DNA of 32,572 nucleotides. It comes from an uncultured Gammaproteobacteria bacterium. GTDB taxonomy: Bacteria > Patescibacteriota > Microgenomatia > UBA12405 > BS750m-G30. The translations under genes were made by a program, and so were the position numbers. Under the pieces are notes generated by a model. It was not told where the DNA came from and searched no databases. It saw nothing but the letters and a program-made list of their open reading frames with translations. How positions within the stretch are numbered: position 1 is the first letter of the stretch; each line of letters begins with the position of its first letter. The stretch is from positions 1 through 32,572 of the forward strand of contig CAZAEB010000003.1 of assembly GCA_964484095.1 (NCBI GenBank), given 5' to 3'. Shown here in pieces: positions 4,123-18,459 of the stretch.

Positions 4123-5985
4123 CTCGTCGTCGCAATCATCATCGTCGTCTTTAAACTCATTCTTTTTCCATCCCTCAATTGATAGGAGGTTTTTGGGTAG
4201 ATCTGATAAAAAACGAGAAGGGTCATTATATTGGGTTTTACCAAAATACAACCTTTGAGCAGTCAGAGTCAAAAAAAGTTTTGTTTTGGCTCGGGTCATT
4301 CCTACATAGCAAAGCCGCCTTTCCTCCTCTAGTTTCTCTGTTTCATTGAGATTTTGAGAATGAGGAAGTAGTCCCTCCTCCATTCCTACTAAAAAGACCG
4401 TTTCAAATTCCAATCCCTTGCTAGCATGAAGGGTCATTAATTTCACCGCCCTGTCTTTCCAGTCATCTTTTTCTTTTTCCTGAGCATAATACTCCTGTTG
4501 AACCAGGGTGACATTTTCTAGAAAATCGCCAATGTCAGGAAACTTTTCCGCTACTGAGGCCAACTCTTTAACATTTTCCAGTCTTTTGGCATCAGTCTCA
4601 TCTTGAGAATCAAACTTTTCTAAATAGCCACTTTTAACAGTAATTGCTTCCATTAATCTTTTAGAAGGGAGATTTTTATTTTTTGCGTCCGCAAGAAACT
4701 CTCTCACTTTAGCCATTCTTCTCTTACCCATGTTTTTTTCAATTCTCTGCCAGGACACCCAGTCTTCCGGATTATAAAAAACTCTAAGCAAACACAAAAC
4801 ATCTTTTACCTCGGCTCTGTCATAAAACCGGGTCCCACCGATAAGAATATAAGGAATGGAGCGGCGGATAAATACCTCCTCAAATGTTCTCGACTGAGCA
4901 TTGGTTCGATAAAGCACAGCAATCTTTGTCGGATCGACACCACTATAATCAACCAAAGACTTAATCTTGTCGGCAACATATTCAGCCTCATCAGTCTCAT
5001 CGCCCGAACGATATACAACAACTTTGCCTCCTTTACTACCAAAAGATACAAGCTTTAAAATCGGATGGCACTCGTTTTTGGAAATAATATTATTGGCAGC
5101 GTCTAAAATAGTCTGGGTGGACCGATAGTTAACCTCCAGATTTATTTTTTTCATATTAGGATAATCCTGCTCCAAGCTTATTAAATTGCGATAATCAGCT
5201 CCCCGCCAGCTATAAATGGCCTGAGCAGCATCGCCAACAGCAGTCAAATTTTTATGTTTGCCAGCCAAAAGCTTGGTTAACAAATACTGTGATCGATTAG
5301 TATCCTGATACTCGTCTACTAAAATATGCTGATATTTATCCTGATATTTTTCCAAAACTGTCTTATTTTTAAAAAGCTCAACTGTTTTAAAAAGTAAATC
5401 ATTAAAATCTAAGGCCTGCATTTTTGCTAGTCTTTTTTCGTATTGAAGATATACTCTTGCAAGAGTTTCTGCCCAACTATTTCCCGCGCTATCAGTAAAC
5501 GTTTTTACTCCAATCATATTATTTTTAGCATCTTCAATAACCGATTTAATCATCGGCATTTTGAATCTTGAATCATCCAAATCCAGGTCCTTGATAATGT
5601 CTCTAACCAAAACCTGCTGATCACTGTCATCATAAATAACAAATGTCGGTTCTATTCCTATCGCCCTTCCATCACGTCGAAGAACACTACAACAAAACGA
5701 ATGAAAAGTACCAGCAAACAAAGAGTTTTTATTAACCTTTCCAGGAAACACCCCCTTTAATAGAGAAAAAAGCCTCTTTTTCATCTCTCCTGCCGCTTTG
5801 TTGGTAAAAGTAAGCAGTAATAACTCTTCCGGTTTTGCCTCCCCGGTAGCTACCAGCCAAGCGGCTCTACTGGTTAAAACCCTAGTTTTACCACTTCCTG
5901 CCCCGGCCAGCACCAGCAAAGGACTGCCGCTGTGCATTACCGCCTTTTTTTGAGCAGGGTTTAATCCCTTTAGAAGCTTATCCAT
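4117..5985 (-). CDS. pcrA: ATP-dependent DNA helicase PcrA/UvrD, short form with an acidic C-terminal tail
   Basis: LNPAQKKAV, AGAGSGKT, VDEYQD, VGDAAQAIYSWRGA, LYRTNAQSR, TLHASKGLEF, EERRLCYVGMTRA. Start re-called at ATG 5985 (MDKLL) because the ORF-track start 6069 overlaps the upstream gene. Confidence 0.9.
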   Translation of the reverse strand: MDKLLKGLNPAQKKAVMHSGSPLLVLAGAGSGKTRVLTSRAAWLVATGEAKPEELLLLTFTNKAAGEMKKRLFSLLKGVFPGKVNKNSLFAGTFHSFCCSVLRRDGRAIGIEPTFVIYDDSDQQVLVRDIIKDLDLDDSRFKMPMIKSVIEDAKNNMIGVKTFTDSAGNSWAETLARVYLQYEKRLAKMQALDFNDLLFKTVELFKNKTVLEKYQDKYQHILVDEYQDTNRSQYLLTKLLAGKHKNLTAVGDAAQAIYSWRGADYRNLISLEQDYPNMKKINLEVNYRSTQTILDAANNIISKNECHPILKLVSFGSKGGKVVVYRSGDETDEAEYVADKIKSLVDYSGVDPTKIAVLYRTNAQSRTFEEVFIRRSIPYILIGGTRFYDRAEVKDVLCLLRVFYNPEDWVSWQRIEKNMGKRRMAKVREFLADAKNKNLPSKRLMEAITVKSGYLEKFDSQDETDAKRLENVKELASVAEKFPDIGDFLENVTLVQQEYYAQEKEKDDWKDRAVKLMTLHASKGLEFETVFLVGMEEGLLPHSQNLNETEKLEEERRLCYVGMTRAKTKLFLTLTAQRLYFGKTQYNDPSRFLSDLPKNLLSIEGWKKNEFKDDDDDCDDEW

Positions 5986-5995
5986 TTTTTTGCAC

Positions 5996-8110
5996 CTACT
6001 TGAGCTTATAAATCCTTGTGTCTCCCGATGAAAACACCCTTTCTCCCCAGTCTTCAAATCGATCCTCATCTAAATTGGAATATTTCTCCCTTTCCATCTG
6101 ACCAATAAAAACATAGGAAACGTTGTATTTATTTAACAAAGCCTTAGCTGTGATTTTATCTTCTCCTTGATATATGTTGTCCACCTCGGCGGCTCGGGCT
6201 CCAGGCTGATCATATCCTCCCCGCCACAACCATTCATGAACCAGCCAACCTTCAATTGTCGGCAAGCCTGTCATTGCTGAAACTCGATTATAAAGAGTAT
6301 AACTGTCTCCAACTGCTTCAAGTAAAACCGGCTGGTCAGAAATATTTTTATTTAACCATAAAACCGCCTGATAGTCGTCTGGGTACTGCTTTTTTAAAAA
6401 ATCCAACCCTGAAGAAAGTCCTTTATAATTCTTCAAAGAAAACTGACCATAGTAACCCTTAATTGCATAAAAGGGATAGGTTAGTTGAGCAAAAAACCCA
6501 ATCGCAACCAAACCTAAAAAGACAAAATACGCCGGCTTAATTTTTTTCTTAAGTTCTTGACCTACCCGCCAGAGGACATATCCGCTAGAAAGGGCATAAA
6601 TAACAAAAGACTGATAAACCAATTTAAATATCGTGTTAGCACGGTGATACTCGGGGATATAAATGTCTTTGACATAAACAACCTCAGGAATAAATATCAG
6701 CACTGTTGCCCAAATAGTTCCTACTAAAACAAAATAGTCAGAAAGCAGTAATGGCTTTTTTCTTTTTACTTTTCTAACTATAAACAACCAAAAAGTGATG
6801 GCAATAAACCAGAAAAATCCCCACAAAACCAAAAGCTGCCACCATAAAGAACGAGCCATGACAAAACCGATTCCATCAGTCATTGGATTAAAACCAAGAG
6901 CAAACGGCAAAGAAACTATAATTGCCGAAGCTAGGACGGTTAGTCCCAAGAACAACTCTTTTCTGCCAATTTCCAATACAGATTTTATATTTATTTTCTT
7001 TGTCTGGCTTATAAGTATCATCAGCAGCACCCCAGCAAAGAAAATCCCATAAATAGGTAGATCCCAAGAGTTGGTCATATAGTGAACTCCCAACAAAAAA
7101 CCCAAAAGTGCCAAAAGGCCAACAATTTTAATAGATAACTGTTCGTTTTTTGCCCTTAAAAGTTCCCTTCCTAAAATAAGTAGTACTGCTAAAAACAATA
7201 AAACGGCGGGAATATTGTTCATGTGACCATGAAGATCGGCTACCACAAAAGAGTATGAAGGAAACTCGTGAATGGTTTTGTCGCTGGGATTGTTGGGATT
7301 ATAACCGATAAACCGGGTTGCATCCGGATACCAATATAGTCCTTTTTTAACCAAGCCAAATATAAAAGAATGTAAATTGCCTCCCAAAGAAACTAAAAAC
7401 GCCGAAGCAAAACCTGCCAACAAGGCAAGGCGGAAAAAGTTTTTAGAGGCTTTTGTTAATAGTTTTTTCGGCTGGGCAAAGATAACCATGTTTGAAACTA
7501 AGGAAAAACTACCTGTAAAAACTAATCCAAAAATAGTGGCAATCATTAGGTTATATGTAGTTGCCGAATCCAAACCGGAAAGTTTTGTTAAAACGGCCGC
7601 TTGAAGATGGCCAAAATAATAGTAGTTTATCGACTCTCCAGCAAACCACATGTCGGCGGGTGGGAAAAATTTTGATCTCAATATCGAATTTACAAACCCC
7701 TGGTCCATAAACTTTTCTAAACCCTCAATTCTAGGCTCAAAGCCTCTCACAAAAGACCAAAAAGTCAAACAAACAAAAAAGATCAGTTCCTGGGCTAAGA
7801 TAAGCTTCCAATTTCTTTTCAAGGTTTCCAGAAGATCTTTCTTTCTTTTTTTAGAATTATAAATCCACAAACCTACCCCGGCAAATAAAATAATTACTAT
7901 AAAAATTGATTCACGGTAAAAGGGAAAAATATGGGCTCTACCTAAAACAAAGACAAGATAAGAAACAGATATGATCGAAAGAATTTTTACGAATATCCAA
8001 CCCTTTGCCCAAAACTTATTAAAAAGACTTAAAGAAATCGGGAAAAAAATAGCCGTCAAACCAAACAAAATCAGCCACCAGTAGGTTATTGTAAAAAAAT
8101 CGGTAAACAT
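5996..8110 (-). CDS. DUF2298 / Chlor_Arch_YYY polytopic membrane protein (probable GT-C-like glycosyltransferase)
   Basis: Many TM segments; EKFMD, PPADMWFAGESINYYYFGH (YYYxG motif), TIHEFPSYSF..ADLHGH, NSWD, RANTIFK; C-terminal extracytoplasmic domain. Confidence 0.85.
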   Translation of the reverse strand: MFTDFFTITYWWLILFGLTAIFFPISLSLFNKFWAKGWIFVKILSIISVSYLVFVLGRAHIFPFYRESIFIVIILFAGVGLWIYNSKKRKKDLLETLKRNWKLILAQELIFFVCLTFWSFVRGFEPRIEGLEKFMDQGFVNSILRSKFFPPADMWFAGESINYYYFGHLQAAVLTKLSGLDSATTYNLMIATIFGLVFTGSFSLVSNMVIFAQPKKLLTKASKNFFRLALLAGFASAFLVSLGGNLHSFIFGLVKKGLYWYPDATRFIGYNPNNPSDKTIHEFPSYSFVVADLHGHMNNIPAVLLFLAVLLILGRELLRAKNEQLSIKIVGLLALLGFLLGVHYMTNSWDLPIYGIFFAGVLLMILISQTKKINIKSVLEIGRKELFLGLTVLASAIIVSLPFALGFNPMTDGIGFVMARSLWWQLLVLWGFFWFIAITFWLFIVRKVKRKKPLLLSDYFVLVGTIWATVLIFIPEVVYVKDIYIPEYHRANTIFKLVYQSFVIYALSSGYVLWRVGQELKKKIKPAYFVFLGLVAIGFFAQLTYPFYAIKGYYGQFSLKNYKGLSSGLDFLKKQYPDDYQAVLWLNKNISDQPVLLEAVGDSYTLYNRVSAMTGLPTIEGWLVHEWLWRGGYDQPGARAAEVDNIYQGEDKITAKALLNKYNVSYVFIGQMEREKYSNLDEDRFEDWGERVFSSGDTRIYKLK

Positions 8111-8116
8111 TTTTAG

Positions 8117-8145
8117 ATTCTAGATCAACCGTTTTTAAAATCCAA
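8117..8145 (-). promoter_or_regulatory. sigma70-like promoter TTGGAT-17-TAGAAT for the DUF2298 gene (leaderless spacing)
   Basis: -35 at 8145-8140, -10 at 8122-8117, 6 nt before ATG 8110. Confidence 0.45.
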
Positions 8146-8634
8146 GCCCTTTTTTTTAATAATCTTTAAAATGAAAAAAATTGCTAGTCCGCCGATAATA
8201 TACCCGCCCAAAATATCAATTGGATAGTGAAGCTTAAAAACAACTCTACTAATACTTACTAAAAGTACACCTGGCAGCAAAATCCAAAACAGTCTTTTGT
8301 CTTCTCTCCAAAAAAAACAAAGCAAAATAATCGATCTAAACGCATGGCCGGACGGAAAACTTCCTTGAGAATAACTACCAATCCACTCTGGAGGAATAGT
8401 CACATCATTGATGAAAGGCCTATTCCAAGGAGAAAAAGCCTTTAATACCGTATTGGCAATCTCAAAAACCACCAGTAAAATCCAAAAAATAGAAAAGATT
8501 TTAAACCTTTTCTTTATCAACCAAAAGCCGCTAAGACCAATTATCAACAACCACAAAAACCAGTGAGAAAAGAAAAACATTAACAAGCTTTTAGAGGGAA
8601 AGGTCGGTTGCCAAAATAAAAGAGATTTAATCAT
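8125..8634 (-). CDS. PAP2-family membrane phosphatase (polyprenyl-phosphate/phosphoribose phosphatase candidate)
   Basis: Three PAP2 motifs: K-x6-RP (KAFSPWNRP), SFPSGH and SR-x5-HYP-x-D. Confidence 0.88.
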   Translation of the reverse strand: MIKSLLFWQPTFPSKSLLMFFFSHWFLWLLIIGLSGFWLIKKRFKIFSIFWILLVVFEIANTVLKAFSPWNRPFINDVTIPPEWIGSYSQGSFPSGHAFRSIILLCFFWREDKRLFWILLPGVLLVSISRVVFKLHYPIDILGGYIIGGLAIFFILKIIKKKGLDFKNG

Positions 8635-9617
8635 TGTTTTTCTTTACCTTTGAATTTATTAAGAACATAAAAGAAGGCAATCAGTCCAATTCCCACTCCC
8701 CACCAAAGAGTAAGCAGGCGAAGAAGAATTGTTGCCGCCGCTGCTTTTGCCCGAGTCAAAGAAAGAAGAAGTGTTAAAAGACCAACAAATCCGCCTTCGG
8801 CAACTCCTATTCCACCAGGGATAAAAGAGACAAATCCTAAAATACTGACAAAGCAGAAAATAAACACCGTTTTAGAAAGTAAAAGATAAGAAAACTCAAC
8901 CCCTCCTACGCTGGATATTATTATTGAAAAACCAACTGCCTCTGCAAACCAAGCTGTAGCTGCTAGCAAGCTGGCTCCCGACAAGCTCTTCCAGCTAACC
9001 AAACTTAAAAGAACCTCTCTAAAAACTACCAATCGATTGCTAACTTTTTCCAAAGAAGGCTTTTTAAAAGATAGTTTTTTGATTAAATTAGCAACCAGAT
9101 TCCAGGCCAAATTACTATAAATCACAAAAATAAAAACACCGCAAGAAATTAAAGCAAAAACAATAGCCAGCCAGCCAAACTGATATGAATAAAAACCAAA
9201 AGCTAGAAGAATAAGCGCCCCCAAACCATCCGTTAATCTTTCAGCAATTACTACAGGAATTGTCCGACTTAAATGATCCCCTGTCATTCTTTTTAAAAAA
9301 TAGGCCTTCAAAACCTCGCCTGTTTTTCCTGGTGAAAGAGTTAGGGGCAAGCCAGAAAGGAATATTAGTCCACTTTCCCTTGGCTTAAGTTCTTTTTCAA
9401 AGCCGACCTTTTTCAAAAAAAAGTGCCAACGGAAAAACCTTAATAAATAGTTAAAACAGGTCAGTGCTAAAACAGGTATTGCCAGCCACCAGTTAAAACT
9501 AACAAGTTCTCCAACTGTTTCTCTAACATCTCCCCAAAAGACTAGCAATGAAGCGACAACCGCTCCTAAAACAAAGGAGAAAATAATTTCTCGTTCAAAT
9601 TTTTTAATCTTATCCAT
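8631..9617 (-). CDS. UPF0104 / lysylphosphatidylglycerol-synthase TM-domain protein (flippase-like)
   Basis: LRFFRW, PGKTGEVLK, ERLTD, PGGIGVAEG and LLRLLTLW motifs; about 8 TM helices. Confidence 0.85.
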   Translation of the reverse strand: MDKIKKFEREIIFSFVLGAVVASLLVFWGDVRETVGELVSFNWWLAIPVLALTCFNYLLRFFRWHFFLKKVGFEKELKPRESGLIFLSGLPLTLSPGKTGEVLKAYFLKRMTGDHLSRTIPVVIAERLTDGLGALILLAFGFYSYQFGWLAIVFALISCGVFIFVIYSNLAWNLVANLIKKLSFKKPSLEKVSNRLVVFREVLLSLVSWKSLSGASLLAATAWFAEAVGFSIIISSVGGVEFSYLLLSKTVFIFCFVSILGFVSFIPGGIGVAEGGFVGLLTLLLSLTRAKAAAATILLRLLTLWWGVGIGLIAFFYVLNKFKGKEKQ

Positions 9618-9631
9618 TTAAGTTTAAAAAG

Positions 9632-9670
9632 TCCCGACCTGCCCCGACATAAGCCGAGACAAGATCGGGA
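9632..9670 (-). other. G.U-rich RNA hairpin followed by a U-tract (leader, terminator or REP-like element)
   Basis: Minus RNA UCCCGAUCU-U-GUCUCGGC-UUAU-GUCGGGGC-AGGUCGGGA gives a 17-bp stem with 4 G.U pairs, followed by C-UUUUU. Confidence 0.6.
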
Positions 9671-9676
9671 TAAACT

Positions 9677-9685
9677 ATCGTAACA
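9677..9685 (-). promoter_or_regulatory. extended -10 (TGtTACGAT) directly upstream of the hairpin
   Basis: TG at 9685-9684 and TACGAT at 9682-9677; predicted TSS ~9671-9670. Confidence 0.4.
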
Positions 9686-9694
9686 GAAAAACTA

Positions 9695-10765
9695 CTAATA
9701 TAAAAACCCATAATCTGACAAAAGTTTTCCCCAATCCGAATCTAAATATTTCCCAATCCTCTTTCTGCCTACAAAATTATACCAATAAACATCATGATAA
9801 AGTCTTGAGGCTAAATAAGACCAGGGGGTAATAAAAGTGTGCAAAATAAGCTTTTCAAACCACCAAGGAAGTTTTTTGTAAATCAGCTTTTGACCCCTTG
9901 AAGCAAAGGTGTCACCCTGAATCAGTTTAAAATTAGGTAAAGAAGATATCCCCTCTATGCTTATCTTTTTAGGATCATTTTCTCCCAGTCCTAATTTTTT
10001 TCCAAGTTTTAAATATTTCATTTTTTGGGGGTTAAAGCCAATTATCTTACTGGCAATCGAATCTAAAGCCACCTCGTCATCACTTGCCAAAACCAGCCCT
10101 GCTTCCTTCCACTCCATTGCCCGTGGACCAGAACCATAACCAACCACCGAACCATCCATCAAACCTAAAATATGAGGATGAAGTTCTTTTTGAATCGAAA
10201 GCAGATCGATAATCACCTCATCAATAAACCGATGTGCCCAATGACGCTTAGTATTTAACATGCCAAAATAATTTTTAATTGACCCGGTAGTTTTGGTAAA
10301 CACATGAGTTTTTAAGGTACACAAGCTGATCAAAGGTTTTTGGAAAATAATTTCTGGAAAATGTACTCCTTCGGGAAATATTTTATCCAAAGCAATCATT
10401 TTTGCTTTTGGCCGATATAAACAGTACTTTTCATCAGTAAGATAATGAATCTTAACTCCATACTTTTTACAAACCTTATCCCAACAATGAACTTGAGCCC
10501 CTTTATAAACGTCAGTAACCACTGTTCTGTTTTCTACGGGAATAATATCTTTAGCTGAAAAACCAAAATCTAAAAGTCCTTTTATCACTCCCTCCAACTG
10601 CCAGGGAGGTGAAGAACAAGCCGGATAAAACTTTGACCAGGAAAGATTTAATTTGATAACAACCGGTTGGCTCTTAACTTTAGAAAAGGATTTTCTTACA
10701 ATAGAAGCATTAATATCAACAATGTTTTTGGGAGTAACTCTTTTAACAATGACTTTTGATTTCAT
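9695..10765 (-). CDS. DUF362 domain protein
   Basis: VVIKLNL, LKTHVFTKTTGSIKNYFG, G.GP and D.VALD motifs of DUF362; no C-terminal CxxCxxC ferredoxin domain. Confidence 0.8.
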   Translation of the reverse strand: MKSKVIVKRVTPKNIVDINASIVRKSFSKVKSQPVVIKLNLSWSKFYPACSSPPWQLEGVIKGLLDFGFSAKDIIPVENRTVVTDVYKGAQVHCWDKVCKKYGVKIHYLTDEKYCLYRPKAKMIALDKIFPEGVHFPEIIFQKPLISLCTLKTHVFTKTTGSIKNYFGMLNTKRHWAHRFIDEVIIDLLSIQKELHPHILGLMDGSVVGYGSGPRAMEWKEAGLVLASDDEVALDSIASKIIGFNPQKMKYLKLGKKLGLGENDPKKISIEGISSLPNFKLIQGDTFASRGQKLIYKKLPWWFEKLILHTFITPWSYLASRLYHDVYWYNFVGRKRIGKYLDSDWGKLLSDYGFLY

Positions 10766-10898
10766 GAAAAAATATTTTTATAGTCTTTTTTTAATCCTAA
10801 TCATTATTCTATCAACGTTTCCGAGAATTTGGAATATAGAAACAAATCCCCGGAGAAAAAACATTTTAGTTGTAGAACTATTCCTTAACCGTGGGTAA
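10764..10898 (+). pseudogene. 44-aa ORF resembling the first TM helix of an ArnT/PMT-type GT-C (possible remnant)
   Basis: MKKYFYSLFLILIIILSTFPRIWNIETNP matches the hydrophobic-helix-R-x-aromatic start of neighbouring GT-Cs, then breaks off before any DE motif. Confidence 0.35.
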
Positions 10899-12401
10899 AA
10901 AAACCACTGTTACTTTTTTATTCCCAGAAGACGAGTAGTAGTTTCTCACTTCCTGATTTTTCTTTATTTGAAGAATACTATCCAGATAATAATCATTTTC
11001 TGGATGGGCTATAATAAAACAAGTACTCCCCTCTATAATTTCGCTAAGCTGTTTATCATTTTTAATAAAAACAGATCTTTTAGACAAGCCATAAGATTCA
11101 AGGGCTGGCTTAAGGAGAGGCTCTGGAGTTTGATATAAAATTACCACTTGTTGATCGGCAGGACACGAACTGAAAGCTTTAATTATCAAAGCCTCTTGAG
11201 TCAAATCCATTTTTTGCGGTGTTTCCCAATAAAAACGATAAAGATTGAGAGTGAGGACAGAAATCATAACCAAACAAACAACTAACCAAGAGGCCTTGGA
11301 GGAAAAATAACTACATAACTTATCGGAAACATAACCCAGTCCAATCCCTCCCACAAGAGCCAAAACAGGCAGTAAAAAATAAAGTCGACTAATGGCCACG
11401 TAAGGATATTGAGAAAGCCCACCAACCATAAATAACAAACAAATAAGAGTGAATAGAATAAAGCGATATTTTTTCCAAGCGAAAATCGAAACAATCAGGC
11501 CAATTACCACAAATAGTCCAAAGAGAGGGTCCAAAAGAGATCCAGAAACAAAGTGAGATACCCGATCATTTTGAAAAAAAGCAAAAAAAGAAGCCCAGGT
11601 ATTTTTCCAAAAAGCGTTCATTACTGCTTCTCTTGGGATTTCTCCAGAAGCAAGCAAAGAACGCTTTAAAATAGGTTCTAATAAAACCTTTTGATTAACC
11701 CAAAAATAAGGAACAGATGTTGCTAAAAACCCAGCTAAAAAAATAAAACCTTGTCTTACTTTCTTTATCCAATCCTGGGATAAAACTAAATATAAAAAAA
11801 TTAAGAAAAGACTAATCCTAGAAAAATAGTTTGTATAAAAGCACAGACCAGAAAAAATTCCTGAAGCAAAAAGAAAAAAGTTTTTTTGTTTCAATCCCAA
11901 CATAAACATATAAAGAGATAAAAAAAGAGGGAAAAAAGCATGAATGTTCCAATAACCTATATGAGTAAACGCCCAAAGATAGTGAGAAAAGGCGAAAAAA
12001 AATAGAGAAAACACCGCTACTTTTTTTCCTAACAACTCTTTAATAAAAAAATAAAAAAAGACAAAAGCTAAAATCACTATCAAGATAGAGCTTATTATCC
12101 AGCCCCGATGGTCAACCCCGAACAGCTTCATTATAAAAGCTTGATAAACAGAAGTGGCCACTGAGACAAAATCATATACTCCTTTTTGGTCTAATATACT
12201 AATAAACCCTGACTGACGAAAAAAAGAAAGTTTACTTTCGCCTAAAACAATCGATTTTGCAAAATTAAAGAACGCATATTCATCACCAATCGCCGAGTAA
12301 TACCAAGAATTAACATCAAAAATAATTAAAAAAAAGAAAAATAAAGAAACTATTCCTAAAAAAACAAAATCAAAACTTTTACTCTTTATCTTAAACTTCA
12401 C
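10878..12401 (-). CDS. GT-C glycosyltransferase (ArnT/PMT, GT39/83-like)
   Basis: TM1 followed by IGDE; about 11-12 TM helices; C-terminal soluble domain. Confidence 0.75.
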   Translation of the reverse strand: MKFKIKSKSFDFVFLGIVSLFFFFLIIFDVNSWYYSAIGDEYAFFNFAKSIVLGESKLSFFRQSGFISILDQKGVYDFVSVATSVYQAFIMKLFGVDHRGWIISSILIVILAFVFFYFFIKELLGKKVAVFSLFFFAFSHYLWAFTHIGYWNIHAFFPLFLSLYMFMLGLKQKNFFLFASGIFSGLCFYTNYFSRISLFLIFLYLVLSQDWIKKVRQGFIFLAGFLATSVPYFWVNQKVLLEPILKRSLLASGEIPREAVMNAFWKNTWASFFAFFQNDRVSHFVSGSLLDPLFGLFVVIGLIVSIFAWKKYRFILFTLICLLFMVGGLSQYPYVAISRLYFLLPVLALVGGIGLGYVSDKLCSYFSSKASWLVVCLVMISVLTLNLYRFYWETPQKMDLTQEALIIKAFSSCPADQQVVILYQTPEPLLKPALESYGLSKRSVFIKNDKQLSEIIEGSTCFIIAHPENDYYLDSILQIKKNQEVRNYYSSSGNKKVTVVFLPTVKE

Positions 12402-14158
12402 TTTTCTTGCCCCTTGAAAATTATCACTCTGGGGTGGTCATAAACAGTAAAACTTTCATCAGCAGACTGGTCGTTTATCTCAAACTCCCAGTCGCCTATT
12501 TTAATTCCTGGATATAAGGAAAAATCAGCTACTTTTTCAAAGCCTAATTCTCCCGAAAAAAGATCCTGATAATATTTAACTGTTTCGGGGTAGCACTTTT
12601 TATGCTTGGAACAATCGACCAACTTCATCAACGGCACGTATAGTCTGTTACTGGAAAGAATGATATAGTCAGCCCTTTTTAAATTACTTTCCACTTTCTC
12701 CCATTTAGAAATTGACTGGTCGGGTTCATACATCGGCATCTCTAAAAAGAGATATTTTTCTGACCCCACCAGTGGAAGCCTATCATCCCAATGCTCAACA
12801 GCAATCACTGACCCGGAAGGAATGTTTTTGTTAATCCAATTTGTTGCCGCTACTCTAGAGTGAGGTCGAGAATAAATAGAGATAAAGGAAAATGTCCAAA
12901 AAAGATGAACAAAAATAAAAAGAATAAAAAATAACGAATAACTTTTACCTACTTTTGATTTAATTTCCCTGAAAAACCAGGCCGATATTAAAACAAAAAA
13001 AGGATATAGGGGCAAACAATATCGCATAAATTTGATCGCAAACCCACCAACTATCAAAAAATATGTCAAGAAAAAAACGGATAAAATAATTTCTTTTGCC
13101 TCACTATCATAATTTCCCGGCTTTTTAATTCTTTTTACTAAACTCGCCAAATAAAAGAAAATGGCAAAAAGAGAAACCGTACCAAGTCCTAATCCTAACC
13201 CGTAAACAACCATGTTTTTGAGAGGATAAAAATAACTTGCTGTCCCAACGTACTGCAAAGTATAGGGAAAGATATAGGCATCTTTGGTCATTTCCTGCTG
13301 ATTTTTAATCTGTCTCCAGAAATTAGGAAAATCGATAACTGCATAAGGTTCAATGATTATAAAAACTAAAACCGCAACAAGAAAAATCAACCCACCGTAG
13401 ACAAACAGCCTTTTACTAATTTGTAAAATCGCCTGCTTTCTTTTAACTTTTCCCAATAGCAAAAGCAGTTTCGGGATAATACCGGCTTTTCTCTCTCCCC
13501 ATAGTTTTATTCCTAATAGTAAAAAATCAGCAATTAAAGCCGTTCCTATCGCTGCTAACAAAACAGTCGCGCTAACTTTGGTCGCCAGCGCCAGACCAAA
13601 GGATGCTCCCACTTTTAAAGCAGTTTTTACTTTTGGATTCTCGTAAAAACCAATAAGAAACCACAAGGTGAGCCAGACAAAAAAATTAAGAGGAACATCA
13701 ACAGTATAAAAATGGGCTGATTGGAGAGGAAAAACACAAGAAGCATATAAAAAGGCGGCTAGAAGGGCAACTTTTTTAGAAAAAATCTTTTTACCAATTT
13801 TGAAAATTAAAACAACCACCCCAAGATCAAATAATACAGAAATCATTCTTCCTACTATTGGCAAATACTGATAGGTTGTCCATTTCTCTCCCCCAAACAA
13901 AGAAGCGATAGTGGAAGTAAACTTTAATAAATATATCGGTAGGCTGCCATAAGCAAAAAAGTTTGGATTAAATGAACTTTGCGAAGTAAAAAAAGTTTGC
14001 CAATTAGACAAAGAGGGCAAAAAGATCTTCTCTGTTACCATAACAATCATCCGCTCGTCAGGGTGAAGATTGTAACCCTGATCCCAGGAAAGCCCAAAAA
14101 CTCTAAAAAGAAGGCCAAATATTAAAATTAATAATAAAATAAGTCGGTCCTTTTTCAT
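12398..14158 (-). CDS. GT-C glycosyltransferase (PMT-like, HPDE subtype)
   Basis: WDQGYNLHPDER, FFAYGSLP, QSAHFYTVD, LATK, KFMRY, DESFTVYDHP. Confidence 0.85.
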   Translation of the reverse strand: MKKDRLILLLILIFGLLFRVFGLSWDQGYNLHPDERMIVMVTEKIFLPSLSNWQTFFTSQSSFNPNFFAYGSLPIYLLKFTSTIASLFGGEKWTTYQYLPIVGRMISVLFDLGVVVLIFKIGKKIFSKKVALLAAFLYASCVFPLQSAHFYTVDVPLNFFVWLTLWFLIGFYENPKVKTALKVGASFGLALATKVSATVLLAAIGTALIADFLLLGIKLWGERKAGIIPKLLLLLGKVKRKQAILQISKRLFVYGGLIFLVAVLVFIIIEPYAVIDFPNFWRQIKNQQEMTKDAYIFPYTLQYVGTASYFYPLKNMVVYGLGLGLGTVSLFAIFFYLASLVKRIKKPGNYDSEAKEIILSVFFLTYFLIVGGFAIKFMRYCLPLYPFFVLISAWFFREIKSKVGKSYSLFFILFIFVHLFWTFSFISIYSRPHSRVAATNWINKNIPSGSVIAVEHWDDRLPLVGSEKYLFLEMPMYEPDQSISKWEKVESNLKRADYIILSSNRLYVPLMKLVDCSKHKKCYPETVKYYQDLFSGELGFEKVADFSLYPGIKIGDWEFEINDQSADESFTVYDHPRVIIFKGQEK

Positions 14159-15777
14159 ATCAGTTCTCTTTTATACAAACGAATAGTCGGTCGATCAAAA
14201 ACCGTCCAGGTTTCCTCGCTGGTCAAATCTGAACCAAGCAACAACTCCTCCCACAAACTAAATGTCCTAAACTCTTTTTCACCAATAAATCCTAACTCTC
14301 CGGAAAACAGTTTTTGATAATAATCTCTTGTTTGTGGATACTTTTTATTGTTTTTAGAAAGATTGGCAAAAACTCGCCTAGAAGGGATAAGAATGTAGTC
14401 TGCTTTTGAAACAAGCTCGTCCAGTTCTTCTTTATTTTCTAAACTATCTTCAAGCGAATAGAAGTCAAAGTTAGTCACTTTAAAACTACTTCTGTTTTCC
14501 ACCGGTAAATCAATAATATTACCTCCTTCTGATAAAATAACCGACCCTGCTGGAAGTTTTTCATTCATCCAATCAGTCGCAAATAAACGAACATCAGTTT
14601 TGTACACCTTTAGAAAAATCAGACCAGGAAAAAGGACTGCTAACAAAAAATATGTTTTCACTTTCTTTCTCTCTATTAAACTCACAAACCAGGCCGCCAA
14701 CAAAACAAAAAAAGGTAAAATCGGAATCATGAATCGAACCCACTTAGCATACAAAAAACCATTAAACATAAACCAAAATACTGGACCAATCAAAACAATA
14801 ACCAGTCCTTTTTTGAGCCTCATCCTTCTGAAAAGTAGTCGTCCTACACCAGTAATCAGGCCTGCTAGAAAAAGAAGAAACATTGGCAAGCCCAATACCC
14901 AAGGAAATATTTTTGTCAACTGAAAAATAACTGGCCCAGTATTGGTAAACTGGCGAGTATAAAAAACTACCGCTTCGCCAACAGCAACCCTAGATTCGTA
15001 AACAACCGTAGTTAACGCCTCCTGCCAGCGAATAAAATAAAACGGACAAAACAAAGCAAAAAATAAACCGGTGATAAGAAAAAGAAACAAAGAATTTCTT
15101 GCCCCAATAAGTTTTTTTTCACTATTGGCAACATTAATCACCACTGTTACTAATAGTAAGGGGAAAATATAAACAATAGCGCTCATTTTAGTAGCCAAAC
15201 CAATCCCCCCAAGAAAACCAACCATTAAAAAGTGCTTATTTTCAGCTTCTTTTCTAAATATTTTTAGACAAAAATAGGCCAAAGCGATAAAAACAAAGGC
15301 CAGTATTGATTCGGTAGTTCCAAAATGAGCCGATTGGATAAGTCCTGGAGTTAAGGCCAAGAGAGCAGGATAAATATATCTTTGCTTTTTGTCAGGAAAC
15401 AAAACCGTTGCCAGTCGATAGCCAATCACTACAGTTGCCAAAGAAAAAACCGCTGACCAAAATCTTAAAAGATATACTGCCTCACTGAAAGCAACAACGG
15501 TAGTAAATCCGAGCTTAAAGCTATTTATCAAAATGCCGGTAAAATATGCCAAATACAAAGGAAATTGGCCATATGCAAAAAAGCGAGGATCAATGTCAGG
15601 AAAACTCATTTGCGAGACACTTCTGGCCATGTTGTTTTCGTCAGGATGAAAAAAAAGCCCCTCTCCCCAATCAAGATGGTAAAAACGAACTAGAAAAGCT
15701 ATTGCCAGCAAAATCCCCCAGCGATAGTCAGCAAATATTCTTCGAATAGAAAAGAAAGAAAAAGACCTAAATAACAT
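14155..15777 (-). CDS. GT-C glycosyltransferase (PMT-like, HPDE subtype), paralog of the adjacent gene
   Basis: FFHPDE, FFAYGQFP, QSAHFGTTE, LATK, KWVRF, EETWTVFDRP. Confidence 0.85.
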   Translation of the reverse strand: MLFRSFSFFSIRRIFADYRWGILLAIAFLVRFYHLDWGEGLFFHPDENNMARSVSQMSFPDIDPRFFAYGQFPLYLAYFTGILINSFKLGFTTVVAFSEAVYLLRFWSAVFSLATVVIGYRLATVLFPDKKQRYIYPALLALTPGLIQSAHFGTTESILAFVFIALAYFCLKIFRKEAENKHFLMVGFLGGIGLATKMSAIVYIFPLLLVTVVINVANSEKKLIGARNSLFLFLITGLFFALFCPFYFIRWQEALTTVVYESRVAVGEAVVFYTRQFTNTGPVIFQLTKIFPWVLGLPMFLLFLAGLITGVGRLLFRRMRLKKGLVIVLIGPVFWFMFNGFLYAKWVRFMIPILPFFVLLAAWFVSLIERKKVKTYFLLAVLFPGLIFLKVYKTDVRLFATDWMNEKLPAGSVILSEGGNIIDLPVENRSSFKVTNFDFYSLEDSLENKEELDELVSKADYILIPSRRVFANLSKNNKKYPQTRDYYQKLFSGELGFIGEKEFRTFSLWEELLLGSDLTSEETWTVFDRPTIRLYKRELI

Positions 15778-16687
15778 AAATAATAATGATTAGTATTGAT
15801 CCCCAAGAAATTATCGAAGAAGCAAGTGGAATATCAGAGGCAAGCAATTTCTCCGGTCGTTCACCCCCAGAATAACCATAGACCAGTTGGGCATAACGCA
15901 TAATCCCAAAAATTACCGGCAAAATAGTAATCATCAGCCACTTTCTTCCTATAATCATGTGGCCAATATCTGTCCCCATATACTCTGCCAGCTTTCCACC
16001 AAACTCCATATCAGAAAAATATGTGAATAAAGAATAGGAAATCAAGGTAGCAACAGCAAAAATCGAAGAGTAAAAGTCTAAAAGAGATTTTTGGTAACGT
16101 TCTAATACTGGTCTTGTTTCACTCCCCTTAGTAACCAACTCACTCCTTCTCTTTCCACTAGCAATAAACAAGGAAAGAAAAACTACCGTAAACATTAACC
16201 AAATAGGCAGATGGTAGCCGGTAGCAACCTCTCCCGCCAAGGTTCTAATGATAAACGAAAAAGAAATGCCAATAATATCCCAAAGGGCAAACTTTTTCAA
16301 TAAAAATGAGTAAAAAACATGCAGGACTATAAAAAACAAGCAGATTAGAAAAACACCCAAACTCTGAAAAGCGGCAATTACCAAACCGATGCCAACAAGA
16401 ACAAAAAAGATTCGGGATGCTAAAGCGACAGAAAGATCTCCTTTGGCAACCGGACGATTCTTTTTTAAAGGATGTTTTTTATCATAAGGAGCATCCACAA
16501 TATCATTTAAAGTATACGAGGCCGAAGAAAGCAGGCAAAGAGAAATAAACACCATTAAGGCCTTAGAGAAAAGATCTACTTCAAAAAACTGGCCAGTAAA
16601 TATAATTGAAGCAAAAACAGCTAGGTTTTTAACCCACTGACCAGGACGAAGCGTGCGAAATATTGCAATAATCATTTTTGAATTCAT
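15767..16687 (-). CDS. UbiA-family polyprenyl-phosphate phosphoribosyltransferase (DPPR synthase-like, Rv3806c type)
   Basis: RPGQWVKN, YTLNDIVD..YDKKHPLKKNRP, YSFLLK, GKRRSE, RY..L and GERPE motifs, diagnostic of the DPPR-synthase branch of UbiA. Confidence 0.88.
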   Translation of the reverse strand: MNSKMIIAIFRTLRPGQWVKNLAVFASIIFTGQFFEVDLFSKALMVFISLCLLSSASYTLNDIVDAPYDKKHPLKKNRPVAKGDLSVALASRIFFVLVGIGLVIAAFQSLGVFLICLFFIVLHVFYSFLLKKFALWDIIGISFSFIIRTLAGEVATGYHLPIWLMFTVVFLSLFIASGKRRSELVTKGSETRPVLERYQKSLLDFYSSIFAVATLISYSLFTYFSDMEFGGKLAEYMGTDIGHMIIGRKWLMITILPVIFGIMRYAQLVYGYSGGERPEKLLASDIPLASSIISWGSILIIIIYVI

Positions 16688-16715
16688 CTAGAAAGATTTT
16701 AAATTAAACCACTCT

Positions 16716-18119
16716 TTAAAACAAGCGAAGAAGACCAGCGAATAAAAAGACAGAGCCAATAACAAATGCTGTCATGACCGGAAGCAAGATTCCTGTTTCG
16801 GGAACTCCGGAATCGGTTGCCGGCATAGTACTCCGAGAAAGATCTGTTGTCGGTGTTGGTGACAAAGTTGGAGTGTTAATCGGTGAAACCGACGGAGCAA
16901 CAGTTGTCGGGGTTGGCGTAGGCGTTGTTGTTTCTCCAGAAGGAGTAGCCGTAAAAGCAGGGTCATTCTCATCCCCAGCAGCTAGAACAACAAAATTTCT
17001 AACAAAAGATTTTTTCTCTCCTTGAGGAGTAGTATAATCAACCGTTAAGGTGTGACTCCCAAGCTCCAAATCCCCTGGCGGCGTCCACTGCCACTCTTCA
17101 CTATCTCCAATTTCCAAACTACTTTCATAGGCAACCGACGATTCGATAGTTATTTTCACCAATCCCAATTTCGGTCCCGTTCCAAATATCTCTGGCCGGA
17201 GAGTACTAACCGTTTCCCCATCGTTAGGACTGATAATTTCAAACTCTTTCTCTTTTTCATACAAAGATCCATTTGTGGCAAAATTACTGCCCCCTTCTTG
17301 TCCAGCATTGAAACCCAACTCGTTATCCTTAATAGAATCCTGATTAGTAAAATCACTATCTACTCCCAAAACAATATTTCTTACTGGACGATTATCCCTA
17401 GTAAAATTAACCACCAACGACCGCCCCATATTTCCTCCTTCAACAGAAATATTTTCTTTAACCTCTCCCTCTTGATAATTAGCAGGAGCAGAAAGACCGG
17501 CGTTGTAAGCAAAAGCTAAAGGTATTACCCAGATTCCCGATGAACTGGTCAGCGAGGATAGAGGAGCCATTCCGGGAATATCCAGATAAACTAAAATTCC
17601 TGAAACTGCTTCACCATTACTGTCAACAACCCTTCCAAAGGCCAACTTTGCCTCTGGAGGCTGTCCTGAATAGATGGCTGCGGTTTTTGCTGTCGATCTG
17701 TTTTCTGCCTCTCCCAAAAGATTATAACTCTTTCCCCCAGAAACCAGCTGGAACCGATATTCTGAACTTGGGTTTAATCCCTCAACTAAAACATAGTGAA
17801 GATAATAATTTTCTGAACTGCCAGAAACTCGATCGCGAACATCAAAAAAAATTCGCTCTTCACCATCAATAAATATTTTTATAAACCCTGTTGTTGCTGT
17901 TTGGGTTTCCCAGGAAACCGATAAAGAACGGTCAATAACATTGGTTACGTTGGCGCCTCTGGGAATAATTTGGGCGCTAGCACGAGAACCAAATATTCTT
18001 GTCTCGGAAATAAAATACAAAAGTGCTAAAGTTACCAAAAGAAAAAACAATCCCAATACTGTAGGAATTTTTCCCGTGCGAACTTTGCCTATAATAGCTG
18101 GTTTTTTTTTATTGGACAT
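16716..18119 (-). CDS. secreted surface protein: N-terminal TM/signal, Fn3/Ig-like domains, Thr/Pro-rich linker, VPETG sortase-like motif and C-terminal TM
   Basis: Hydrophobic N-helix then RASA; Fn3-like VSWET..HYV.VEGL.PSSEY; Ig-like WQWTP..L.LGSHTLTV; TTTPTPTPTT; VPETG at 16805-16791 then a hydrophobic tail. Confidence 0.7.
   Translation of the reverse strand: MSNKKKPAIIGKVRTGKIPTVLGLFFLLVTLALLYFISETRIFGSRASAQIIPRGANVTNVIDRSLSVSWETQTATTGFIKIFIDGEERIFFDVRDRVSGSSENYYLHYVLVEGLNPSSEYRFQLVSGGKSYNLLGEAENRSTAKTAAIYSGQPPEAKLAFGRVVDSNGEAVSGILVYLDIPGMAPLSSLTSSSGIWVIPLAFAYNAGLSAPANYQEGEVKENISVEGGNMGRSLVVNFTRDNRPVRNIVLGVDSDFTNQDSIKDNELGFNAGQEGGSNFATNGSLYEKEKEFEIISPNDGETVSTLRPEIFGTGPKLGLVKITIESSVAYESSLEIGDSEEWQWTPPGDLELGSHTLTVDYTTPQGEKKSFVRNFVVLAAGDENDPAFTATPSGETTTPTPTPTTVAPSVSPINTPTLSPTPTTDLSRSTMPATDSGVPETGILLPVMTAFVIGSVFLFAGLLRLF
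16800..16955 (-). repeat. low-complexity Thr/Pro/Ser-rich linker coding region
   Basis: Encodes TATPSGETTTPTPTPTTVAPSVSPINTPTLSPTPTTDLSRSTMP. Confidence 0.7.
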
Positions 18120-18459
18120 CCATAGAGGAAGATTCAGATTCTAACTGAGAAAGAGATTTGTAATAGTTATCAATCTCTTCTAAGGAAAAAAACTTCTTCT
18201 TTTGTGATTCTGAAATTAGCCCACTGTCAATCTCGGGGTTCAAAGGCTTTACTAAATAGGTGGATTTTTCAACCATCTCCTTGGAAAGCAAAAGATGATA
18301 TCCTTCTAGCATCACCCAGGTAAGGCTGGCAAAAAGAACAAAGACTGATATTATCACCAGGTTTTTTAATACCCTTTTTCTCCTTTTAATTACCGCCTTT
18401 CTGTTTTTTGACTCAACCATCTTTTTGATTTTTGGAACCAAATCTTTTTTTTCTACCAT
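18109..18459 (-). CDS. small single-TM protein at the pilP position of a pilNO cluster
   Basis: Basic N-terminus, one TM helix, PLNPEID; overlaps both neighbours (translational coupling). Confidence 0.6.
   Translation of the reverse strand: MVEKKDLVPKIKKMVESKNRKAVIKRRKRVLKNLVIISVFVLFASLTWVMLEGYHLLLSKEMVEKSTYLVKPLNPEIDSGLISESQKKKFFSLEEIDNYYKSLSQLESESSSMDVQ

Follow-up and report, generated by a model that had tools for sequence, protein, structure and literature searches.

A conserved UbiA, GT-C and phosphatase locus as a candidate source of PRPP-derived lipid-linked pentose in a CPR bacterium

In this study we analysed a 32,572-bp stretch of DNA, referred to below as the window, which is the entire contig C3 of an assembly of 560,784 bp in 33 contigs (GCA_964484095.1; 89.7 % complete) from a bacterium of the candidate phyla radiation (CPR). 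The nearest protein matches carry the names Shapirobacteria, Woesebacteria or Patescibacteria, which identifies the genome as one of CPR/Microgenomates. ORF calling resulted in eight open reading frames (ORFs), all on the minus strand, that fill positions 5996-16687 and encode a UbiA protein, three GT-C glycosyltransferases (GTC1 to GTC3), a DUF362 protein, a UPF0104 membrane protein, a PAP2 phosphatase and a DUF2298 membrane protein (Table 1). In our view the eight genes probably represent, in this genome, a locus for cell-envelope glycosylation that is kept throughout a CPR order. It would provide a lipid-linked pentose donor, derived from phosphoribosyl pyrophosphate (PRPP), for use at the cell surface. 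A pathway of this kind had been predicted from the DNA letters alone. Its Rv3806c-type UbiA, its PAP2 and GT-C proteins and the lack of DprE1 were supported, whereas its novelty, the core roles of UPF0104 and DUF362 and the freedom of the cell from nucleotide-sugar chemistry were not.

In the proposed pathway, UbiA would move 5-phosphoribose from PRPP onto polyprenyl phosphate at the cytoplasmic face of the membrane, as suggested by homology and substrate-binding residues. The 5'-phosphate would be stripped by PAP2, whose active site is predicted to face outward and which is fused to DUF2298 in some lineages, or in sister lineages by the product of a small HAD-like gene. Outside the membrane the lipid-linked pentofuranose would be used by the GT-C enzymes, namely three PMT_2 proteins with an N-terminal Asp-Glu pair and DUF2298, whose structure model resembles AftA, STT3 and AglB. 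Likely acceptors would be the neighboring Thr/Ser/Pro-rich surface proteins with sortase motifs, or the WecA-primed glycan of a second cluster in the window. As an accessory module, the soluble DUF362 protein would most probably alter the pentose on the phosphoribosyltransferase product, comparable to DprE1/DprE2 or the epimerase ORF13 of Citrobacter youngae, a short-chain dehydrogenase/reductase (SDR), and UPF0104 would probably translocate this product.

UbiA resembles PRPP-dependent phosphoribosyltransferases

The best NCBIfam matches of the window UbiA were two models of decaprenyl-phosphate phosphoribosyltransferases (189.9 bits with a cut-off of 207, and 179.4 bits with a cut-off of 234). 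A third model of this function (143.3 bits) and a 'UbiA family prenyltransferase' model (148.5 bits), which has 482 positions and is matched in its C-terminal half, completed the top four. All other UbiA subfamilies, represented by quinone, heme, chlorophyll and archaeal-lipid prenyltransferase models, reached at most 56 bits. Hence, the grouping with quinone or heme prenyltransferases that the original prediction had named as evidence against itself did not occur. The protein also aligned over its full length with Rv3806c (PDB 8j8j; E 8e-32, query residues 5-289 on chain residues 13-285).

Thirteen Rv3806c residues that touch PRPP, Mg2+ or decaprenyl phosphate are named in the excerpt of the structural study PMC10994848, i.e. 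R22, K28, Y70, N73, D77, K87, R90, Q135, Y138, K143, Y157, K191 and K208. By correspondences counted by hand in the alignment with 8j8j, ten of these are identical in the window UbiA; Q135 is replaced by His, K208 by Pro and Y157 by Phe. The last exchange is tolerated and occurs in some mycobacteria (PMC10994848). In an alignment of 22 homologues, residues R14, K20, Y58, N61, D62, D65, D69, K75, R78, Y126 and K179 of the window protein were invariant (in this order equivalent to R22, K28, Y70, N73, D74, D77, D81, K87, R90, Y138 and K191 of Rv3806c). Nine of the ten identical contacts are among them, while the K143 equivalent and the Phe at the Y157 position are conserved to at least 90 %. The phosphoribose contacts are absent from prenyltransferases according to the same excerpt (PMC10994848). 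The model ranking, the 8j8j alignment and the invariant contacts together indicate that the window UbiA is of the PRPP-dependent Rv3806c type, as had been predicted, and not a quinone or heme prenyltransferase. Many CPR homologues of this protein are already labeled decaprenyl-phosphate phosphoribosyltransferase by NCBI.

The gene order is conserved across the order

Conservation was analysed in 41 genomes of the order, the window genome counted, of which 29 are of high quality; 36 loci of relatives were fetched and re-scored by tblastn. UbiA was present in 39 of the 41 genomes and in all 29 high-quality ones. GTC1 directly followed UbiA in each of the first 12 loci, and of the relatives' loci that extend 1.8 kb or more downstream of UbiA, all 31 had a gene of the GTC1/GTC2 type. 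Those that reach 9 kb or further downstream of UbiA, termed the 21 long loci, contained GTC2 (21), DUF2298 (20), PAP2 (15) and a HAD-like gene (7), with either PAP2 or the HAD-like gene in 20. DUF362 (4), an SDR epimerase (3) and UPF0104 (1) were much rarer, and GTC3 was present in some relatives only.

The usual order upstream of UbiA is MetRS (reverse), S20 (reverse), MurJ, a PilN-like protein, two small proteins, the fn3/Ig surface protein and, in some cases, extra Thr/Pro-rich proteins and a flavoprotein. It continues with UbiA, GTC1, GTC2, a variable slot, PAP2 (or the HAD-like gene in reverse orientation), DUF2298, PcrA and FemAB. The slot holds uracil-DNA glycosylase, GT4, methyltransferases, extra PMT_2 genes, the SDR epimerase or DUF362. 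Thus, UbiA, the GT-Cs, the phosphatase and DUF2298 form the core, and DUF362 and UPF0104 are accessory. The expectation that these genes co-occur in other genomes was correct for the core genes, which are syntenic across the order, but UPF0104 and DUF362 are sporadic.

The predicted eight co-oriented and mostly abutting genes were recovered with each family confirmed by Pfam and NCBIfam. UbiA and GTC1 overlap by 11 nt, GTC1/GTC2, GTC2/GTC3 and UPF0104/PAP2 by 4 nt each, and the remaining junctions are gaps of 112, 77 and 14 nt. Consensus scans of positions 5800-21600 gave chance-level counts for promoters (43 sites, 37.7 +/- 5.5 expected) and terminators (11 sites, 17.4 +/- 4.2 expected). They provided no operon boundaries and were dropped as evidence for these. 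It is the recurrence of the gene order in relatives, not the consensus scans, that places the cluster beyond chance.

In a phylum-wide sample, a UbiA homologue (E <= 1e-20) was found in 35 of 151 genomes, the window genome counted. These include all 7 genomes listed as 'same class'; the kinship of 96 unlisted non-matching genomes is not shown. Elsewhere in the class, in orders other than this one, and also in certain further classes, UbiA directly follows TatD, a GT2-like gene, one or more PMT_2 genes, a small membrane protein gene and a WecA-like gene, and precedes the PEGA/SH3 gene. This arrangement corresponds to positions 23236-30682 of the window (compared with L070-L075 and L080). UbiA has changed its place: it lies between the WecA-like and PEGA/SH3 genes in other orders and about 12 kb away beside GTC1 here. 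In more distant classes it is found among Bac_transf, GT4, Wzy_C and UPF0104 genes.

Table 1. Features of the window discussed in this study
Feature	Position	Strand	Characteristics
UbiA, candidate polyprenyl-phosphate 5-phosphoribosyltransferase (Rv3806c-like PPPRS)	15767-16687	-	306 aa; Pfam UbiA E 1.3e-24
GTC1, GT-C glycosyltransferase (PMT_2)	14155-15777	-	540 aa; PMT_2 E 2.4e-9, PMT E 1.9e-5
GTC2, GT-C glycosyltransferase (PMT_2, weakly Agl23-like)	12398-14158	-	586 aa; PMT_2 E 1.5e-13
GTC3, GT-C glycosyltransferase (PMT_2), variable member	10878-12401	-	507 aa; PMT_2 E 4.5e-11
DUF362, soluble, LarA-like fold, accessory	9695-10765	-	356 aa; Pfam E 2.5e-25
UPF0104 / MprF-flippase-like membrane protein, accessory	8631-9617	-	328 aa; LPG_synthase_TM E 5.2e-34
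PAP2 phosphatase, candidate 5'-phosphatase for polyprenyl-P-ribose-5-P	8125-8634	-	169 aa; Pfam E 4.5e-16
DUF2298 / chlor_Arch_YYY membrane protein	5996-8110	-	704 aa; Pfam E 6.8e-104
Surface protein, fn3/Ig-like domains (weak Pfam), candidate acceptor	16716-18119	-	Thr/Ser/Pro-rich tail, VPETG sorting-type motif, C-terminal transmembrane (TM) segment
Linked second glycan cluster	24046-29837	+	Pfam/NCBIfam
PMT_2 GT-Cs of second cluster	24046-25323, 25323-26825	+	Pfam/NCBIfam
Membrane GT2-like protein	26874-28376	+	Pfam/NCBIfam
Small multi-TM protein	28381-28755	+	124 aa, 3-4 hydrophobic segments; conserved between PMT_2 gene and WecA-like gene
WecA/MraY-like phosphotransferase	28770-29837	+	Pfam/NCBIfam

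The phosphatase is linked to DUF2298 and alternates with a HAD-like gene

The PAP2 phosphatase predicted for the cluster has all three catalytic motifs intact. Residues K65, R72, P73, P94-H97, R130, H136 and D140, which belong to the KX6RP, PSGH and SRX5HX3D motifs, were invariant in 15 out of 15 orthologues. From the positions of basic loops and the positive-inside rule we infer that the active site faces outward. In the gene-order maps of relatives PAP2 is located immediately upstream of DUF2298, and both are naturally fused in the proteins P0441 and P0452 (PAP2 at residues 8-170, DUF2298 from residue 187 on; fusion-type locus L055:11361-14177). These single-protein fusions, which are a new element, indicate that the phosphatase works with DUF2298. 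In one relative the fusion gene is adjoined by a LytR-CpsA-Psr ligase gene (L055:15009-16034), a neighbor that hints at polymer attachment to the cell wall.

Relatives without PAP2 carry at the same position, on the opposite strand, a gene of about 175 aa with a DxDGV start and weak matches to HAD or LNS2. The seven long loci with this gene comprise 5 without PAP2 and 2 with both. A HAD-type phosphoribose phosphatase is fused to the synthase in the system of Kelly et al. (PMC11127046), and the PAP2 protein Rv3807c is the mycobacterial counterpart, with a proposed role (PMC11127046). The alternation of PAP2 and the HAD-like gene at one position of the locus is the main argument for the removal of the ribose 5'-phosphate by PAP2. 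Furthermore, BacA/UppP and a second PAP2 are encoded elsewhere in the genome, so that the PAP2 of the window would be dispensable for housekeeping carrier recycling.

DUF2298 has a predicted GT-C fold

All five PMT_2 proteins of the window contain an Asp-Glu pair within their first 46 residues; in the cluster these are HPDE at residue 46 of GTC1, HPDE at residue 34 of GTC2 and GDE at residue 40 of GTC3. DUF2298 scored 497.6 bits on TIGR03662 (chlor_Arch_YYY), which is over the cut-off. Candidates for a catalytic acidic residue in its first outer loop are E132, D136 and D153, all of them invariant and close to the YYY motif. A phmmer search of DUF2298 against PDB sequences gave no match at E <= 1, and the literature contained incidental mentions only, with no function assigned.

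The AlphaFold2 (AF2) model of DUF2298 was of good quality, with a predicted local distance difference test (pLDDT) of 85.2 and a predicted template modeling (pTM) score of 0.91. Foldseek assigned a probability of 1.00 to STT3, AftA (TM-scores 0.52/0.59), AglB, DPY19, PglB and ArnT; among the matches listed, 29 GT-C entries, and GT-C enzymes only, received this value. The structural comparison with VIA gave Z-scores of 11.6-15.8 to 12 GT-C chains, a range to be read with the caveat that helical bundles reach Z of about 13 through arrangement alone. Top matches were Pmt1-Pmt2 (Z 15.8, root mean square deviation (rmsd) 5.4, 378 residues aligned) and AglB (Z 15.6), and the longest-covering one was AftA (Z 14.0, rmsd 5.0, 498 aligned over residues 24-704). 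Residues 570-704 resembled the C-terminal domain of AglB (Z 9.6, rmsd 2.9, 115 aligned). Since Z alone can be inflated by helical arrangement, it is the consistency of the match list that argues for the GT-C fold. According to the model, DUF2298 has this fold with an extracytoplasmic, AglB-like C-terminal domain, which makes the predicted 'up to four transferases' reasonable. Joining the DUF2298 and GTC1 families by sequence profiles failed, whereas the fold searches do join them.

DUF362 is an accessory partner of the phosphoribosyltransferase

DUF362 has no TM segment, and its AF2 model reached a pLDDT of 95.1. Its five best PDB matches all belong to the LarA family (7s91, Z 15.1; 9eia, 14.7; 4nar, 14.4; 9q3j, 14.0; 5huq, 13.3), followed by a next-best match of Z 5.8, and Foldseek agreed on this family. 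The model thus places DUF362 in the two-domain fold of LarA. DUF362 and the LarA N-terminal domain are sister families in the Pfam clan CL0471 (PMC11770544). Neither a phmmer search against PDB sequences (no match at E <= 1) nor an ESM Atlas feature search for DUF362 without PF04015 (no usable match) added further relatives. No functional assignment was found in the literature on DUF362/PF04015.

Orthologues of DUF362 were present in 11 out of 41 genomes of the order, the window genome counted, so that the protein is accessory and not a core member as had been assumed. Wherever DUF362 and UbiA were found on one contig (8 out of 8 genomes), DUF362 was located 3.3-9.3 kb downstream on the same strand. 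The SDR epimerase fills the variable slot in 3 relatives' loci, all of them without DUF362.

A metagenome scan with the DUF362 alignment returned 80 loci. From these, 24 were classified as close (at least 54 % DUF362 identity and room upstream) and 30 as distant (39-45 %). GT-Cs were present in all 24 close loci, the HAD-like gene in 17 and PAP2 in 4. The window arrangement, with UPF0104 and PAP2, recurs in one metagenomic locus (L090) whose DUF362 has 86 % identity. A UbiA gene was present in 20 of the 30 distant loci and directly adjacent to DUF362 in 19. Nineteen of these 20 UbiA proteins scored 243-316 bits on NF008977 (cut-off 234) and the twentieth was truncated. The DUF362 proteins of the same 20 loci form 17 clusters at 90 % and 6 clusters at 70 % identity. 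The other neighbors vary and include PMT_2 or GT87 GT-Cs, MurJ-like and UPF0104 proteins, SDR enzymes, a prs-like gene, phosphohexomutase, transketolase and GT2s. Pfam searches of 69 flanking proteins from 23 distant loci revealed no DprE1-type domain, no PAP2 and no HAD, and the order-level PAP2 and HAD profiles had no match in the 30 distant loci.

This adjacency shows that the phosphoribosyltransferase and DUF362 are a conserved gene pair well beyond the order. The predicted participation of DUF362 in the pathway is thereby supported far outside the genome, although the pairing says nothing of the reaction. The link between PPPRS and DUF362 is the most valuable and new product of our analysis.

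Hints to an active site came from seven DUF362 homologues of 37-45 % identity that carry an intein (P0242, P0244, P0247, P0254, P0256, P0257 and P0263), in five cases together with a LAGLIDADG endonuclease. Where homologues were aligned (P0242, P0244, P0254 and P0256) the insert is located at or beside the Lys-Thr junction of a conserved K-T-H motif (K152/T153 in the window protein). This position suggests that the motif is an active-site element. Two ORFs run from DUF362 into LPG_synthase_TM (P0388 and P0294); they start inside DUF362, are partial genes and may be assembly artefacts. A further ORF (P0350) is a DUF362-methyltransferase fusion.

Most probably, DUF362 changes the pentose of the phosphoribosyltransferase product. 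A more far-reaching proposal is tentative: this DUF362 subfamily might be a new single-protein remodeller of polyprenyl-P-linked (phospho)ribose that replaces DprE1/DprE2 or the SDR epimerase without nickel-pincer machinery. It would then form a widespread two-gene module supplying arabinose, xylose or keto-pentose donors for surface glycans of CPR and other bacteria, here decorating Thr/Pro-rich sortase-anchored proteins.

Even less likely, in our view, is that DUF362 is not an epimerase but a 5'-phosphoribose phosphatase, another processing enzyme or a chaperone of the product, with plain ribofuranose as the sugar. Such a role would fit the lack of PAP2 and HAD matches in the distant loci, because a phosphatase always accompanies the synthase in the systems characterised in the excerpt of PMC11127046. 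The missing LarC (see below) and the conserved Lys, His and Asp, which could bind a metal, would also be in agreement with it. However, the CPR loci already hold a HAD-like gene or PAP2 beside DUF362, the slot is shared with an SDR epimerase in relatives, and the structural relatives are solely racemases and epimerases.

DprE1 and nucleotide sugars in the genome

The predicted lack of DprE1 was borne out in the 89.7 %-complete genome. No ALO domain was found in it, and its sole FAD_binding_4 match is a 334-aa frame on contig C9 that is too short for DprE1 and presumably MurB-like. An FAD flavoprotein of the PRK07233 family (396 bits) is encoded directly upstream of UbiA in 12 out of 34 relatives' loci (e.g. 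L018, L019, L021, L023, L024, L026 and L029). The window lacks it at this place, and the copy of the genome is split over contig ends (C20:9361-10215 and C32:2-490) after mreBCD-pbp2. As a member of an uncharacterised family that is absent at the window position and not specific for the cluster, it was rejected as a DprE1 substitute.

The predicted absence of GtrA held among the window ORFs of at least 80 aa that were scanned, but not in the genome, where a GT2-GtrA fusion (402-aa frame, C7:22075-23190) has an SDR 4,6-dehydratase-like gene and an Agl23-like GT-C as neighbors. The genome further contains 12 GT2 matches, and PF01370 (Epimerase), the only family covered for DprE2-like short-chain dehydrogenases, gave 3 clear matches, located outside the window, plus a marginal one. 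The idea of a cell free of nucleotide-sugar chemistry is at odds with these GT2, SDR epimerase/dehydratase and GT2-GtrA genes. Judging from its gene content, the cell has a conventional polyprenyl-P-sugar route and uses nucleotide sugars.

Evidence against the pathway and alternative explanations

Several findings weigh against a PRPP-derived pathway, and the strongest is the lack of a PRPP synthase match in this genome and in about half of the high-quality genomes of the order. A search for the PRPP synthase gene prs, suggested by the original prediction, found none: PF13793 had no match in the 89.7 %-complete genome, and TIGR01251 matched only a 175-aa frame (28.7 bits) whose protein is an adenine phosphoribosyltransferase (214 bits). 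PhnN was rejected as an alternative PRPP route, since the genome search gave P-loop matches only. Over the cut-off, prs was found in 17 of the 41 genomes and in 14 of the 29 high-quality ones, all 29 of which carry UbiA; counted from the same table, 15 of these 29 carriers have no such match. Among the prs-less genomes are some with 4 to 20 contigs and a completeness of 97-98 %. Because 3 out of 4 relatives of the same family have prs and the window genome keeps the PRPP user Apt, its own prs may be unassembled. The apt gene (C2:23127-23624) lies beside the gene for the methylthioadenosine phosphorylase MTAP (L032:4371-5634), and Apt occurs in only 4 of the 41 genomes.

That UbiA does not use PRPP in these organisms, acting with another donor or in a prenyl-type reaction within an ordinary hexose-based GT-C locus, is the least probable of the alternatives considered. 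It would account for the prs-less genomes and for the two best equivalog scores of UbiA, both slightly under the curated cut-offs. Against it stand the invariant Lys/Arg cluster and phosphoribose contacts, not shared with prenyltransferases according to PMC10994848. In addition, the retained adenine phosphoribosyltransferase implies that PRPP must be available or that prs is unassembled, in line with the prs of same-family relatives, and a prs-like gene is located beside the gene pair in one distant locus (L131).

The flipping step poses a further difficulty. UPF0104 matched LPG_synthase_TM with 118.5 bits (cut-off 33.4) and the flippase-like TIGR00374 with 76 bits (cut-off 43.2), and it probably translocates the lipid-linked sugar. 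The role of a core flippase, however, does not agree with its presence in 1 of the 21 long loci, which leaves the core flipping step without an assigned protein. No MATE flippase was found by Pfam among the eight cluster genes, and MurJ, which is encoded nearby, is a genuine MurJ by its score (300.6 bits, cut-off 235.55). The genome gave no match to LarC (PF01969) at E <= 0.1 (LarB and LarE were not searched), which makes the nickel-pincer cofactor needed by LarA enzymes unlikely for DUF362 here. The profile comparison of DUF2298 with GTC1 by hhalign was not significant (probability 21.8 %, a 36-column C-terminal stretch only). The evidence is computational throughout, and it is from gene content, synteny, folds and residue conservation that we infer the biochemical steps, the identity of the sugar and the acceptor.

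Other findings point to additional donors. The GT2-GtrA synthase and the Agl23-like GT-C on contig C7 imply that some or all of the window GT-Cs could use hexose donors. The best fold matches of DUF2298 include oligosaccharyltransferases, i.e. users of polyprenyl-PP-glycans, and an outward-facing PAP2 fused to DUF2298 would fit the recycling of polyprenyl-PP as well as the dephosphorylation of ribose-5-P. One may thus consider a locus of mixed donors, in which the UbiA-derived pentose serves only GTC1, while the other GT-Cs and DUF2298 use polyprenyl-P-hexose or a WecA-primed polyprenyl-PP-oligosaccharide. DUF2298 would then be an oligosaccharyltransferase or ligase, and PAP2 would recycle polyprenyl diphosphate. 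We regard this as unlikely, although it deserves more weight than the other two alternatives. It is in agreement with STT3, AglB and PglB as top Foldseek matches and the AglB-like C-terminal domain of DUF2298, with the linkage of PAP2 to DUF2298 rather than to UbiA, and with weak NCBIfam matches of PAP2, which are undecaprenyl-diphosphatases. A WecA-like gene and the GT2-GtrA synthase are present in the genome, and GTC1 alone overlaps the UbiA gene. Conversely, the HAD-like gene that replaces PAP2 in 5 of the 21 long loci (with two more holding both) encodes a presumably cytoplasmic protein unable to recycle an outward diphosphate, and it matches the logic of the HAD-type phosphoribose phosphatase of Kelly et al. 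(PMC11127046). The genome already encodes BacA and a further PAP2, and the longest-covering match of DUF2298, over 498 residues, is the polyprenyl-P-pentose user AftA.

Comparison with known systems

The pathway cannot be called undescribed, as the original prediction had it, because direct ribofuranose transfer without DprE1/DprE2 has already been published. Kelly et al. (2024, PNAS, PMC11127046) report experimentally proven pentofuranose systems of Citrobacter youngae O1/O2 (ORF15, ORF14 and ORF12, with or without ORF13). There, alpha-ribofuranose is added via PRPP-derived undecaprenyl-P-ribose without DprE1/DprE2. The machinery consists of a GT-C, a MATE flippase and an Rv3806c-like synthase that contains a HAD phosphatase domain, and an optional SDR epimerase switches the sugar to xylofuranose (PMC11127046). 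The CPR locus shares the Rv3806c-like PRPP synthase, a presumed removal of the 5'-phosphate, extracytoplasmic GT-Cs, an optional candidate for a pentose-changing enzyme and the lack of a detected DprE1. In contrast to the fused HAD domain of ORF15, the phosphatase here is a separate PAP2 or, in relatives, a separate small HAD-like protein. Instead of the MATE flippase UPF0104 is found, and in some genomes only. Where the published system has a single GT136 GT-C, the CPR locus has four to six from the PMT_2 and DUF2298 families, and the candidate auxiliary enzyme is DUF362 with its LarA fold rather than an SDR. The host here, a CPR bacterium, lacks O antigen. DUF362 in turn shares the two-domain fold of the LarA superfamily but is a separate sequence family with no LarC found, and its substrate would be a lipid-linked sugar instead of a 2-hydroxy acid.

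Similar to the mycobacterial decaprenyl-P-arabinose pathway (PMC11127046, PMC10994848), a UbiA-type PRPP transferase is encoded beside PAP2 and several GT-Cs, and the DUF2298 model aligns with AftA over 498 residues. Unlike that pathway, with Rv3806c, Rv3807c, DprE1/DprE2, Rv3789 and Emb/Aft, no DprE1 was found and the window holds no GtrA-type Rv3789 homologue. The GT-Cs are outside the Emb/Aft sequence families, and the acceptor here is a candidate only. In the excerpt of PMC11127046, candidate systems for arabinofuranose (Araf)-containing glycans contain DprE1/DprE2 homologues. Type IV pilin O-arabinosylation in Pseudomonas aeruginosa involves a PPPRS homologue with a GT-C (PMC11127046). 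This is the closest model for the glycosylation of the neighboring Thr/Pro-rich proteins, with sortase-motif proteins as candidate acceptors here and pilins there. In P. aeruginosa the GT-C is said to O-glycosylate Ser/Thr of the surface protein from a lipid-linked pentofuranose.

The TIGR03662 (chlor_Arch_YYY) and TIGR03663 (Agl23) families co-occur in genomes, according to the model descriptions. Likewise, DUF2298 adjoins PMT_2-like GT-Cs in the window. These GT-Cs, however, remain far under the TIGR03663 cut-off (21.7 bits for GTC2, cut-off 126), and a link to a phosphoribosyltransferase is absent from that description. Agl23 of Haloarcula was reported as a hexose-P-dolichol flippase (PMC11182771).

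The CPR locus is thus different from known systems in its phylum, in the PAP2/HAD alternation and the PAP2-DUF2298 fusion, in how many GT-Cs it encodes and of which families, and in having DUF362 but no MATE flippase. Literature searches found no paper tying such a pathway to CPR. To our knowledge, the surface chemistry of CPR bacteria is almost wholly uncharacterised, and their lifestyle depends on attachment to other cells. If the proposed PRPP-derived pathway is correct, a whole order has a nucleotide-sugar-independent route to pentofuranose (UbiA in 29 of 29 good genomes, and in about a quarter of the phylum-wide sample) beside likely protein substrates. Two large families would gain a pathway context, DUF2298 as a GT-C transferase with PAP2 and DUF362 as partner of a phosphoribosyltransferase. 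As a sister family of LarA, DUF362 would be an unrelated solution to the well-studied DprE1/DprE2 step and of interest to enzymologists. The prs-less half of the carriers raises the question of the PRPP source in reduced cells.

Candidate acceptors and neighboring genes

Of the 34 loci that extend 1.5 kb or more upstream of UbiA, 27 contained the gene of the surface protein next to UbiA. A [VI]Px[TSA]G motif and TM tail are present in 24 of 33 homologues, the protein of the window counted. In relatives there are additional proteins that contain 19-104 Thr/Ser-Pro dipeptides and a motif of the LPxAG type, and two sortases are encoded in the window genome. Even at E <= 5, Pfam gave no family for the small multi-TM protein of the second glycan cluster or for seven orthologues; a small translocase, perhaps a GtrA-like flippase, would be a possible identity. 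Its equivalent sits two genes upstream of UbiA in other orders. Both protein O-glycosylation and a WecA-primed glycan are possible.

Throughout the order, MurJ and the surface protein flank a PilN-like protein and two family-less small membrane proteins (18109-19632), which may serve pilus assembly, division or sorting. In 11 relatives' loci a uracil-DNA glycosylase gene is located on the opposite strand inside the cluster, between GTC1 and GTC2 (e.g. L023:12431-13060). One relative carries, between its flavoprotein gene and UbiA, an inserted DDE transposase with a helix-turn-helix (HTH) ORF (L019:8197-9248; L041 is the same record). The PcrA-like helicase ORF (4117-6069), as called, shares 74 nt with the 3' end of the DUF2298 ORF, and the helicase start codon is likely further along than called. 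A second UvrD-like helicase-nuclease is encoded at positions 91-3030 of the window.

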